Origin: an uncultured Candidatus Saccharibacteria bacterium
GTDB taxonomy: Bacteria > Patescibacteriota > Minisyncoccia > Phycocordibacterales > PALSA-1337
NCBI GenBank assembly: GCA_964532285.1
Contig: CAZHHB010000001.1
Coordinates: forward strand, 77,916 to 141,915
Direction of reading: 5' to 3'
DNA: 64,000 bases
In this document: positions 61,117 through 62,628 of the stretch, in pieces
Position numbering within the stretch: position 1 is the stretch's first letter
Layout of the letters: every line of letters begins with the position of its first letter
Made by a program: the position numbers and the translations under genes
The notes under the pieces: generated by a model
What the model was told of the DNA's origin: nothing
Databases searched by the model: none
The model's input: only the letters and a program-made list of their open reading frames with translations

Positions 61117-62628
61117 TTACAGACCCTTCATCTTTTTGAAGTGCGAACGGATTTTTTCAACATCGGCTTTGACTCGCTGGTCTGATTCCAATACTGAATC
61201 AATATGTTTGCACGCACTCGAAACCGCCAATAGACGCTCTGTTGTTCCGAACATAGAACTAATCACATGTGACGGCTGATTAAGGTCGTTCAATATGATA
61301 TACATTGCAAGGTTTCGAGCCCATTTTACTTGTTTTGAAGTTTTTGAACCAAGGATGATCTGGGCACTGATCTCATAGGCGGCTCCTACGAGTCGGATTG
61401 CGTCCATACAGGGATCTGTATTCGATGGGTCCGGCAGCCAATGTATGAAAGCTGAAGTGGCGCGTATGTGTGTGGTACGCCGTTTCCTGCGCCTCTTCGT
61501 CTCCTGAGTCAGAGCGGTCTCTTTACTATTTCTTTCAAGGTTGGCTGCCTCAAGCAGATTGCCAACAGAAATCTTGGTTCCTGTTGCGTCTTCCAAGATT
61601 TCAATCCTGGTGTAAAGGGACAACAACCTGTCGTGATTTAGAGCAAGTCCTGGATAGTTTTCTTTCAGACAAATCCAAACCTCCTCCATGATTTGCCGCA
61701 CCCGCTCTCTGTTTAGCTGGAATTTCTGCGCCGTCAGCTCAAGTGTGTTGTAAGCATCGATTGATCCATCGAGCCCATAGAAACACTTGAACATGTCTCG
61801 ATTCCTACTCTCCACACATAGAAGTGAATTAATGGCGGACAACAGATTCACGGCCTGTTCTACAAGTGTACTGAGTTCTTCCAAGGCACAGATTCTCGTG
61901 TCAGGTCTGATACAATTCCGGTCTGGGAAGAACTCCGAATGAGCCACTTTGTTTCCGTCCTTCCCATCAACCTGTGCATCAAGCGAAAAAGCTTCAAGAT
62001 TCGTTCCCTTGATGAGTTCGTAGACCGTGAGACGATCATGACCGGATCTGGCGGAGATCTCATCAATGGTTGGCACATGGCCAAGTTCATTGCTGAGTTC
62101 CGCGATGATTCGATTGATAGCTCGTTTTAGTTCACGCCTCTTGACCGGCAGACGGACGGGGCCAGATTGGTTATCTATGGCCCTGCCTATGGATTGCTTG
62201 ATCCACCATTTTGCGTATGTTGGGAATGTACACCCAAATCTGTAATCGAACTTCTCCGCAGCCCTCATCAGACCGAGATTTCCTTCCTGGATCAGATCAT
62301 TCCAATCCAAACATCCACGGTAACTGTTTGCAAAGAATGGAACAAGACGCAGATTGTGGAGGATCAATTTTTCTTTGGCACCGCTATCTCCCTCCGAAAC
62401 TTTGCGTGCCAGATCTAATGTTTCTTCACGCGTCAGGATTTTGTATCGCCCGATCATTCTGGAATAGAACCGATCACCATCCACTTCTCCGTTCTCCATT
62501 CTGGAAATGACAGATGAGATTTGTTCAGGATCAGGTTCTGGTTCCACCATGTCGATGGTTCTTGGTTCAAGAAGCTCTTCTGGCTCAACGCCAGAAAGAG
62601 TACGATTATTATCGATGTTCTGGGACAT
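61117..62628 (-). CDS. sigma-70 family factor (regions 1.2 to 4) fused to a C-terminal DnaA-domain-IV-like HTH
   Basis: Regions 2.1-2.4 (LILHNLRLV.. EGNLGLMRAAEKFD.. TYA.WWI.Q.I), region 3, and region 4 (MFKCFYGL...TL.....F..RERVRQIE-like). An extra ~160 aa ends in KQVKWARNLAMYIILNDLNQPSHVISSMFGTTERLL, which resembles DnaA in this window ([28 protein letters not shown]). Confidence 0.65.
   Translation of the reverse strand: MSQNIDNNRTLSGVEPEELLEPRTIDMVEPEPDPEQISSVISRMENGEVDGDRFYSRMIGRYKILTREETLDLARKVSEGDSGAKEKLILHNLRLVPFFANSYRGCLDWNDLIQEGNLGLMRAAEKFDYRFGCTFPTYAKWWIKQSIGRAIDNQSGPVRLPVKRRELKRAINRIIAELSNELGHVPTIDEISARSGHDRLTVYELIKGTNLEAFSLDAQVDGKDGNKVAHSEFFPDRNCIRPDTRICALEELSTLVEQAVNLLSAINSLLCVESRNRDMFKCFYGLDGSIDAYNTLELTAQKFQLNRERVRQIMEEVWICLKENYPGLALNHDRLLSLYTRIEILEDATGTKISVGNLLEAANLERNSKETALTQETKRRRKRRTTHIRATSAFIHWLPDPSNTDPCMDAIRLVGAAYEISAQIILGSKTSKQVKWARNLAMYIILNDLNQPSHVISSMFGTTERLLAVSSACKHIDSVLESDQRVKADVEKIRSHFKKMKGL

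Follow-up and report, generated by a model that had tools for sequence, protein, structure and literature searches.

A sigma-70 factor ending in a DnaA domain IV-like fold and its ParB-like partner in a Saccharibacteria genome: a possible portable transcription module

We analyzed a stretch of 64,000 nucleotides (the window) from contig CAZHHB010000001.1 of an uncultured Candidatus Saccharibacteria bacterium, which contains a gene for a sigma-70 factor ending in a domain similar to domain IV of the replication initiator DnaA. An earlier note made from the sequence of the window had located this gene exactly, and the open reading frame (ORF) call assigns it to the minus strand. The adjoining gene codes for a ParB-like protein; its presence next door had also been claimed, and the Pfam domains bear this out. 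The two genes are convergent and lie between an island and a DoxX-like gene. Their coordinates, the promoter-like sites, the hairpin between the genes and the direct repeat at both ends are collected in Table 1.

Table 1. Features of the sigma-ParB gene pair (coordinates of the window; aa, amino acids; pLDDT, predicted local distance difference test)
Feature	Position	Strand	Remarks
Left copy of the direct repeat, TTTACAACGGATAATAAAA	59987..60005	+	right after a terminator-like hairpin (59952-59980)
Promoter-like TTGACA-17-TAATCT	60027..60055	+	upstream of the ParB-like gene; direct reading, under the threshold of the consensus scan
ParB/Noc/KorB-type partner, 298 aa	60094..60990	+	Pfam ParB_N 47.0 vs 26.3, HTH_ParB 33.2 vs 22.6, KorB 27.3 vs 22.3 bits
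Hairpin GACTGCAG-gaaa-CTGCAGTC, then T run	61014..61033		between the convergent genes; shared terminator-like site
ORF of the sigma-70 factor with DnaA domain IV-like tail	61117..62628	-	503 aa and stop; ATG at 62628, stop 61117-61119
DnaA domain IV-fold domain, residues 404-503	61120..61419	-	ends in a D-x-E-x-x-R-x-H-F-[RK]-K helix
Family-specific cap H-x-R-A-[ST]-x-A-F-x-x-W-x-P, residues 387-399	61432..61470	-	missing from DnaA
Disordered basic linker with KRRRKRR, residues 354-385	61474..61569	-	pLDDT <50 in the full-length model
Sigma region 4 (about residues 272-324) and extra helix (332-349)	61579..61815	-	Pfam, alignment, model
Sigma region 3, residues 169-223	61960..62124	-	Pfam PF04539, 22.2 bits, slightly below the cutoff of 25.3; aligns in RpoS/RpoD models
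Sigma region 2, residues 88-154	62167..62367	-	Pfam PF04542 Sigma70_r2, 50.2 bits vs cutoff 24, E 2e-13
Sigma region 1.2, residues 54-81	62386..62469	-	Pfam PF00140, 22.3 bits vs cutoff 22
Promoter-like TTGACT-16-TAGTAT	62676..62703	-	upstream of the sigma gene
Right copy of the direct repeat, TTTACAACGGATAATCAAA	62711..62729	+	overlaps the final codons and stop of the DoxX-like gene (62712-63074, minus)

The sigma body of the protein stops near residue 350. As claimed in the earlier note it comprises the complete regions 1.2 to 4, which is borne out by Pfam, by NCBIfam, by the family alignment and by structure matches. The homologues P0002 and P0003 (51-52% identity) and eight remoter clusters align with the protein from M1 to the C-terminus. 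N-terminal to region 1.2 there is a short acidic stretch, and the Pfam scan of the protein gave no Sigma70_r1_1 match, i.e., the protein is without region 1.1. Region 4 is matched weakly by Pfam (residues 295-316, 14.4 bits vs a cutoff of 24.1); among the homologues the region 3 cutoff is passed by P0002 and P0003 and the region 4 cutoff by P0002. The NCBIfam RpoS and RpoD models cover residues 46-327 with E ~1e-48. We placed the promoter-reading residues of regions 2 and 4 by comparison with the E. coli sigma-70 numbering. Region 2 bears the promoter-melting and -10 determinants Y138, W141, W142 and Q145. Across 11 full-length relatives T137, Y138 and W142 of region 2.3 are invariant, as is the motif R307-E308-R309-x-R311-Q312 of region 4.2; in the family alignment I143 is likewise invariant and A139, W141 and Q145 are nearly so. 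Because these residues of regions 2.3 and 4.2 are conserved, the apparatus for reading the -10 and -35 elements looks intact, and the sigma part, with regions 1.2 to 4.2 present, looks like a working-type sigma-70 factor. An AlphaFold2 model of the whole protein (mean pLDDT 71.6, predicted template modelling score (pTM) 0.34) matches solved sigma-A (SigA) and sigma-S chains, the lowest E value being 2.6e-12. The extra helix which follows region 4 is common to the unfused Patescibacteria sigma factors P0005, P0006 and P0056, and the sigma body ends past this helix.

With the group 1/2 sigma-70 factors (RpoD, RpoS, SigA) the protein shares the regions 1.2, 2, 3 and 4 in this order, the aromatic residues of region 2.3 and the RERxRQ motif, and it is 35-41% identical to bacterial primary sigma factors. 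Unlike them it has no region 1.1, and it carries the helix after region 4 and about 150 further residues which end in the DnaA-fold domain. An RpoD or RpoS orthologue was ruled out: the scores of 166 bits (RpoS, equivalog cutoff 378.7) and 158 bits (RpoD, cutoff 572) lie far under every equivalog cutoff, and the protein is therefore a member of the sigma-70 family without being an orthologue of either. MzaA, the sigma factor of the MZA anti-phage system, was rejected as well, since the match of 166.6 bits (cutoff 800) covers just the generic sigma core at model positions 474-693. Beyond this generic match PADLOC gave no defence matches for the ParB-like protein and the neighbours, which leaves a defence-system reading unsupported.

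The sigma body is followed by the basic linker, whose length and sequence vary within the family according to the alignment, and by a compact helical domain (residues 387-503). The earlier note had seen in this tail a likeness to the C-terminal helix-turn-helix (HTH) of DnaA, had proposed a Pfam scan and a structure prediction as checks and had feared that the similarity might be limited to a short AMY motif. Pfam Bac_DnaA_C (PF08299) was indeed matched on residues 411-465 with E 5.4e-6, yet at 26.8 bits the match is under the gathering score of 31.5 bits; P0002 and P0003 reach 23.0 and 22.4 bits, and the L092 member of the family gave no match. BLASTP aligned 87 residues of the tail with the DnaA of the window itself (31511-32857) at 24% identity (E 9e-6). 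DnaA chains make up five of the seven matches of the tail in a phmmer search of the PDB sequences, and with a profile of 13 tails of the family the six best PDB matches are all DnaA chains (best E 3.6e-8). Modelled alone with AlphaFold2, the tail reaches a pLDDT of 92.8 and a pTM of 0.88, and in a Foldseek search of the PDB the best 12 matches of this model are all DnaA domain IV. Against the isolated DNA-bound domains of M. tuberculosis and E. coli DnaA the target-normalised template modelling (TM) score is 0.82-0.83 and the root mean square deviation 1.4-1.9 Å. The DnaA domain IV fold predicted for the C-terminal domain of about 115 aa is thus confirmed by Pfam, BLASTP, profile and model comparisons, and the likeness covers the entire domain and is not restricted to the AMY motif.

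The tail has the same fold as DnaA domain IV (Bac_DnaA_C; PDB 1J1V, 3PVP) over about 90-97 aligned positions, shows clear profile homology to it and has kept the equivalent of R407. In contrast to DnaA domain IV it occurs without an AAA+ domain and lacks the DHTTV motif, R399, P423 and H439 are replaced, and it has gained the N-terminal cap and a conserved basic C-terminal helix. In the family alignment R389, A390 and W397 of the cap are invariant and H387, A393 and P399 nearly invariant, and the cap is modelled as packing onto the domain (pLDDT 85-92). The tail elements which are conserved in the family are this cap, A-Y-E, W-A-R with the tryptophan replacing DnaA R405, and the basic last helix D-x-E-x-x-R-x-H-F-[RK]-K; none of them is a DNA-contact element of DnaA. 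The protein as a whole is not a replication initiator of the DnaA type, as it has neither the AAA+ domain III (Bac_DnaA) nor domain I, both of which are present in the window's DnaA.

We take residues R399, P423, D433, H434, T435 and H439 of E. coli DnaA to be the box-reading contacts in the 1J1V complex. The tails were aligned with residues 374-467 of E. coli DnaA and with the window's DnaA, and in the window protein R399 is changed to T, P423 to H, D433 to E, H434 to R, T435 to L and H439 to S. In the alignment of 15 tails the box-contact columns are unconserved, and just the R407 equivalent has been retained (R, K or Q). Furthermore, neither a perfect nor a relaxed DnaA box is present in the window gene pair or its surroundings, nor in the regions of the four other modules described below. 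Since the contact residues are replaced, the respective columns are unconserved and the modules are without boxes, a tethering of the sigma factor to DnaA-box-like sites, as it had been proposed in the earlier note, is unlikely, and the same evidence leaves the proposal of an anti-initiation or replication-coupled control without support. Two perfect DnaA boxes (TTATCCACA) are found at 50814 and 53250 of the window in the low-GC block of the island, and one of them belongs to a 24-nt inverted repeat (52676-52699/53241-53264) which flanks an unannotated ORF (52683-53234).

The closest solved relatives of the ParB-like protein are Spo0J (E 5.7e-19), Noc and KorB (E 6e-9). The Box II nucleotide-binding motif G-x-R-R has been kept and reads DGQRRWIAC in the window protein, DGERRLRAC in L005 and DGERRIRAC in L006, so that by its domains and this motif the protein is a candidate CTPase clamp. 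By direct reading its N-terminus has no LG-R/K-GL ParA-binding peptide, and no parA gene adjoins any of the five modules; lacking both, the pair does not qualify as part of a canonical ParABS partition system. No canonical parAB pair was found within the 64-kb window. The only canonical parS-like sites of the window lie inside the gene of the CCA-adding enzyme, at 2143-2158 (GGTTTCACGTGCAACA, two mismatches) and 2526-2541 (TGGTTCACGTGAAACA, one mismatch) when compared with TGTTNCACGTGAAACA, about 58 kb from the module and about 29 kb from dnaA.

In all five loci with visible flanks (the window, L002/L008, L005, L006 and L092) the fusion gene adjoins an orthologous gene for a ParB-like protein of about 300 aa. 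Compared with one another, these five ParB-like proteins are orthologues along their entire length (33-72% identity). The pair is convergent in the window, in L002/L008, where a gene for an alpha/beta hydrolase lies upstream of the sigma gene, and in L092, where it is found inside a ribosomal operon between rplB and rpsS; it is divergent in L005, close to a glucose-6-phosphate dehydrogenase (G6PD) gene, and in L006, close to peptidase M10 and CYTH genes. The identities to the ParB-like and sigma proteins of the window fall in the same order, namely about 70% and 52% for L002, 42% and 32% for L006, and 33% and 30% for L005. ParB-like genes also adjoin other proteins of transcription initiation. 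In L094 the ParB-like gene is convergent with a gene for a 433-aa Sigma54_activat AAA+ protein (L094 5988-7289), the last ~110 residues of which contain a W-x-P cap, A-F-A-Y-E and R-N-H-F-R-K and resemble the sigma tail of the window; a tail profile which was built without this protein scores its tail with 31.5 bits (E 8e-6 at Z=1e6). In L095 a 196-aa sigma factor is encoded directly upstream of a ParB-like relative.

A 19-nt direct repeat, TTTACAACGGATAAT[A/C]AAA, brackets exactly the sigma and the ParB-like gene in the window; 18 of the 19 nucleotides are identical in the two copies, which are the only ones in the window, whereas 0.08 would be expected by chance. At the syntenic locus L004 a related sequence, TTATCCGGTTGT, is located between DoxX and tRNA-Lys, and among the five modules flanking or promoter-proximal repeats were found in the window only. 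Because of this native junction sequence in L004 and the lack of the repeat in the other modules we prefer a duplicated target or attachment site over an operator of the tail (the repeat contains TTATCC and is situated upstream of both promoters), which we rank lower. The pair recurs in four other unrelated contexts with no recombinase nearby, and in L092 it interrupts the otherwise contiguous S10 ribosomal-protein operon. The metagenome-assembled genome (MAG) that supplies L004, whose PolA is 60% identical to that of the window, has the ParB-sigma pair on another contig, with proteins that are 30-33% identical. Judged from these gene orders the pair evidently moves as a unit. The earlier note had taken the sigma factor for a possible regulator of the mobile element and had placed it in the GC-rich half of the island. 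The pair does sit in DNA that differs from the syntenic relative, but the first description is too loose, as the pair is its own 2.7-kb unit, and the second holds only in part, the pair having just 45.8% G+C vs 42.8% of the backbone.

As for expression signals, AAAGGA is found 6 nt ahead of the sigma ATG, sites comparable to the promoter-like sequence of the window (TTGAC...TAnnAT) were read by eye upstream of the sigma genes in L002, L005, L006 and L092, and L002 has a similar hairpin at the equivalent place between the genes. Between rplC and rplD (L092 4883-5496) the ribosomal operon of L092 also carries an inserted toxin-antitoxin pair of the Gp49/HTH_3 (HigB/HigA-like) type; with this pair and the ParB-sigma pair both inserted, the operon has accepted two small cassettes.

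An exhaustive phmmer search with the tail over 1.84 billion representative proteins returned only 21 clusters, which consist of single-tail sigma fusions (432-520 aa), long sigma proteins (729-1134 aa) and a few DnaA or small DnaA_C-only proteins. The long sigma proteins (P0121, P0122, P0128, P0136) contain multiple tail-like stretches above the Pfam DnaA_C cutoff, and P0121 (L096 4328-7630) reaches 157 bits over four DnaA_C copies, one of them with the canonical GGRDHTTV. These multi-copy relatives have a sigma-70 core of the same lineage, and their first copy shows the R-x-x-P-x-F cap, A-Y-G/E and W-x-R-N. They differ from the single-tail proteins in being longer, in a region 1.1-like N-terminus and in their distal copies, which carry the canonical GGRDHTTV and score above the Pfam cutoff, and in the two visible loci (L004, L096) they have no ParB-like neighbour. 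Because the first copy shares the features of cap, A-Y-G/E and W-x-R-N with the single tails, both types of fusion probably descend from a single fusion event. Some of the long relatives carry a second region 4-like segment besides the region 1.1-like N-terminus. For P0012 (L004 10001-12130), with 709 aa the minimum of this class, there is only one very weak Pfam DnaA_C match. P0121 has DEAD/ResIII helicases with DUF4379 as flanking genes; a helicase gene of this type also adjoins the ParB-like gene of L094, in divergent orientation. A standalone protein of the tail type, P0126, has 128 aa; small standalone DnaA_C proteins are common in phages.

A scan of the GTDB representative genomes for the motifs RA[TS][PS]AF.. 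and D[VI]E..R[SA]HF gave no confirmed locus, the same scan of the IMG/VR viral contigs gave none, and tblastn with the tail found no match in the phage and plasmid collections; phage sigma factors cover at most 58% of the window protein. With the viral, phage and plasmid searches being empty there is no evidence for a phage- or plasmid-borne fusion in the collections scanned. The motif scan of the JGI metagenomes yielded two true loci, both of the P0002 type; a further candidate, L009, was discarded as it is a high-GC contig without a related ORF. A search of a set of 5.8 billion proteins with the 15-tail profile gave no match and also missed the query's own protein, which reflects a limitation of the word index and is not evidence for absence. 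The PNPase of the host is 78-83% identical to that of uncultured freshwater MAGs and 60-67% identical to that of Taylorbacteria, Paceibacterota and Kaiserbacteria MAGs, which places the host among the Patescibacteria. In the literature we found neither a fusion of a sigma factor with a DnaA domain nor a ParB/sigma pair described for Patescibacteria, and as far as found the combination of sigma factor, DnaA-fold tail and ParB partner is undescribed. The finding is broader than that of the earlier note, comprising a family with a conserved partner and with multi-copy relatives.

Several known systems resemble the pair in part. KorB of plasmid RK2, a ParB-family clamp, acts with the transcription factors KorA and TrbA (PMC11790492, PMC13584720); here too a non-partition protein of the ParB family is combined with an HTH transcription protein on movable DNA, and the ParB-like protein of the window matches KorB models and structures. 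The difference is that the partner in the window is a full sigma factor and not a small repressor, and there is no homologue of KorA or TrbA. In BisD-BisC of ICEclc a ParB-like CTP clamp and a transcription activator switch on promoters of the element over distance (PMC12409273). This is again a ParB-like clamp of a mobile element with a partner that acts on transcription; there, however, BisD has an activator domain of its own, BisC is not a sigma factor, and there is no sequence relation to the tail. In the late transcription of T4 the sliding clamp gp45 cooperates with the sigma-like gp55 and the co-activator gp33 (PMC2988020, PMC7892883), and the concept is alike inasmuch as the C-terminal end of a promoter-recognition subunit is tethered to a DNA-tracking clamp, which restricts transcription to clamp-marked DNA. 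T4, however, uses a PCNA-like ring and a short peptide tether, whereas the window has a candidate ParB-type clamp and, as the proposed tether, a folded domain, the two being connected by gene linkage; this is an analogy and no homology. Finally, a survey reported that the ParB-CTPase fold occurs in nature fused to Sigma70 domains, and the reported fusion bound ATP (PMC12704722). A functional connection of ParB and sigma is supported by this survey because it links both families in one polypeptide. In the window, by contrast, the two are encoded by separate neighbouring genes, the ParB-like protein has both ParB_N and HTH in full, and the survey makes no mention of DnaA.

From the domain composition, the fold, the lost DnaA-box contacts, the conserved pairing and the mobility of the pair we infer that the two proteins may be functionally coupled. 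In the reading which we favor, tentatively and with somewhat less than even confidence, the pair is a portable ParB-coupled sigma module belonging to Patescibacteria, and the tail is its coupling device. The ParB-like protein would load onto the DNA that carries the module, and the sigma factor would bring the host core RNA polymerase to ordinary TTGACA/TAnnAT promoters. The tail would couple both, either by docking on the ParB-like protein or by binding DNA just upstream of the -35 element beside it, and the use of the sigma factor, be it activating or silencing, would then depend on ParB-marked DNA. The conserved residues of the tail lie in the cap, A-Y-E, W-A-R and the last helix, and the base-contact positions are unconserved; this pattern, with a variable recognition helix, leans to a protein interface, while the fold, the retained arginine and the basic linker leave room for DNA binding. 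The Sigma54_activat protein of L094, another kind of transcription engine that bears a like tail and again adjoins a ParB-like gene, we count for coupling. We also count for it the common order in which the ParB-like and sigma proteins diverge, the small sigma factor ahead of a ParB-like relative in L095, the intact sigma determinants, and the published cases of ParB-family clamps working with transcription factors or fused to Sigma70 domains.

A number of observations weigh against this reading. The contact of the tail with the ParB-like protein or with adjacent DNA is proposed from gene linkage only, and plain DNA binding by the tail is fully possible, given the HTH fold, the kept R407 equivalent and the basic linker. 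The L094 tail scores lower on the family profile than the true DnaA of the window (40.9 bits). No sigma gene lies within 8 kb of the ParB orthologues in L090 and L091 (46-48% identical), and none was found near a ParB-like relative (35% identical to that of the window) which in the phage-like contig L093 (2794-8925) is located between P22-type portal and coat genes in the head cluster; the ParB side is thus not obligatorily paired. Neither a 7+7 parS-like palindrome common to the modules nor any other shared DNA motif was found in them, and the two promoter regions of L092 share none either. Finally, the sample is small, with ~13 fusion clusters and 10 ParB loci.

Alternatively the tail might be an independent sequence-specific DNA-binding domain, a third anchor comparable to a built-in activator or the C-terminal domain of the alpha subunit (alpha-CTD), whose target would be a module-specific sequence ahead of the -35 element. 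The ParB-like gene would then be a regulator or maintenance gene that travels along but is mechanistically separate. We consider this somewhat unlikely. The fold is that of DnaA domain IV as bound to DNA, the R407 equivalent is R, K or Q in 15 of the 15 tails, most of them have a K/R-rich loop, the basic linker could reach the DNA upstream of region 4, and a variable recognition helix could mean a different site in each module; moreover, TTATCCGTTGT is found 10 nt upstream of the -35 element of the sigma gene and also upstream of the ParB-like gene. However, in several members the equivalent of the recognition helix is acidic or hydrophobic, L092, with its likewise convergent pair, lacks a counterpart of the 19-nt repeat, and the native DoxX/tRNA-Lys sequence of L004 favors a duplicated target or attachment site as the nature of this repeat. 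A third anchor would also leave unexplained why the similar tail of an AAA+ activator again occurs beside a ParB-like gene. The recurrence of a similar tail on this unrelated protein and as the standalone P0126 in addition argues against a sigma-specific surface, and hence against the improbable case of an intramolecular regulator which keeps the sigma factor inactive until a signal arrives, possibly the ParB-like protein. Sigma factors of the extracytoplasmic function (ECF) type with regulatory C-terminal extensions are an established precedent for such an autoinhibition, the DNA-contact positions are not among the conserved surface elements, and the flexible linker would let the tail fold back on the sigma body, but the full-length model with its low pTM does not show a confident docking of the tail there.

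The adjacency of the two genes could also be meaningless, an ordinary chromosomal ParB/Noc protein and an ordinary alternative sigma factor being neighbours by shared ancestry of the gene order. The ParB-like protein is closest to the chromosomal Spo0J and Noc, the window has the canonical parS-like sites at 2143 and 2526, the neighbours in L005 and L006 are housekeeping genes, and ParB orthologues occur alone as well. On the other hand the gene order differs at every locus and the orientation of the pair flips, so that the pairing alone survives; in L092 the pair has been inserted at the rplB-rpsS junction, ParB-like relatives adjoin two other transcription-initiation proteins, and both the ParA-binding peptide and the parA gene are lacking, for which reasons we regard an adjacency without functional meaning as improbable, too. 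Very improbable, finally, is a tail that anchors the sigma factor at DnaA boxes, or occupies them in competition with DnaA, and in this way couples transcription to replication initiation or blocks the initiation. The tail is homologous to DnaA domain IV and identical to it in fold, the module lies ~28 kb from dnaA-dnaN, relatives with two to four DnaA_C copies include canonical GGRDHTTV copies, and TTATCC in the 19-nt repeat corresponds to the first six bases of a DnaA box. Against these points stand the replacement of all six contact residues, whose positions are unconserved in the single-tail family, the lack of perfect and relaxed boxes in all five modules, and a conserved partner which is ParB-like and not DnaA, DnaN or an origin.

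Returning to the ParB-coupled sigma module, a more specific version of it can be formulated, which we consider unlikely though worth stating. The ParB-like protein would be a nucleotide-driven sliding clamp that hands the sigma factor, or in L094 the AAA+ activator, to promoters of the DNA molecule on which it travels, with the tail serving for docking to the clamp. If this is extended to the relatives with two to four copies, they would be sigma factors of a primary-like kind in Patescibacteria and would read DnaA-box-like arrays.

The stretch from tRNA-Lys (48900-48976) to DoxX holds a large serine recombinase, a block of 36% G+C and a candidate defence ATPase, and the sigma-ParB unit is separable from the rest of it. 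The plus strand carries the tRNA-Lys(ttt) gene, which the recombinase ORF (48935-50551, minus) enters with its 3′ end by ~40 nt. In L004 the same tRNA-Lys directly adjoins the DoxX-like gene, in opposite orientation, and the ~13.7 kb between both in the window are therefore inserted or rearranged. No second copy of the tRNA-Lys 3′ end, such as would delimit the larger island, turned up in the window. In L004 a partial repeat of the tRNA 3′ end, GTAGTCGATTCCAACTAG, is present at 16740-16790, ~110 nt past the 3′ end of tRNA-Lys, and resembles a leftover attachment site; this suggests that tRNA-Lys is a recurrent integration spot in the lineage. The AAA_14/DUF4143 ATPase (56395-57834) in the 36% G+C block matches the PADLOC candidate defence family PDC-S01 (E 4e-29) and is adjoined by a GNAT-domain protein (55348-56292). 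Two long ORFs overlap on opposite strands, 58910-59776 (minus) and 59111-59920 (plus), neither of them with a family match. The public gene call is the minus ORF; since the plus ORF has a much higher third-position G+C (0.65 vs 0.48) and is followed by the strong terminator-like hairpin at 59952-59980, it may be the real gene of the two. Elsewhere in the window a run of same-strand ORFs (17523-29957) with a VirB4-like conjugative ATPase (23932-25746; CD1110 family, 376 bits) points to a type IV secretion cluster that closely precedes yidC and dnaA.

A sigma factor normally has two anchors, one reading the -10 and one the -35 element. A third fold of the nucleic-acid-binding type, borrowed from a replication initiator, would build promoter specificity or regulation into the sigma subunit itself. 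The pairing possibly extends the regulation of transcription by CTP clamps of the ParB family, as in KorB, BisD and VirB, to the initiation factor. The pair behaves as a small mobile cassette without a recombinase of its own, which is unusual for regulatory genes, and the entire system is compact, with two proteins and two promoters in 2.7 kb. If the clamp hands over the sigma factor as formulated above, the pair would be a cellular and portable counterpart of the clamp-activated late transcription of T4, 2.7 kb in size and insertable even into a ribosomal-protein operon. Patescibacteria have few classical transcription factors, which would make such a sigma subunit notable there, and if the extension to the multi-copy relatives is true, these organisms, so poor in transcription factors, would have their transcription linked with the origin of replication.

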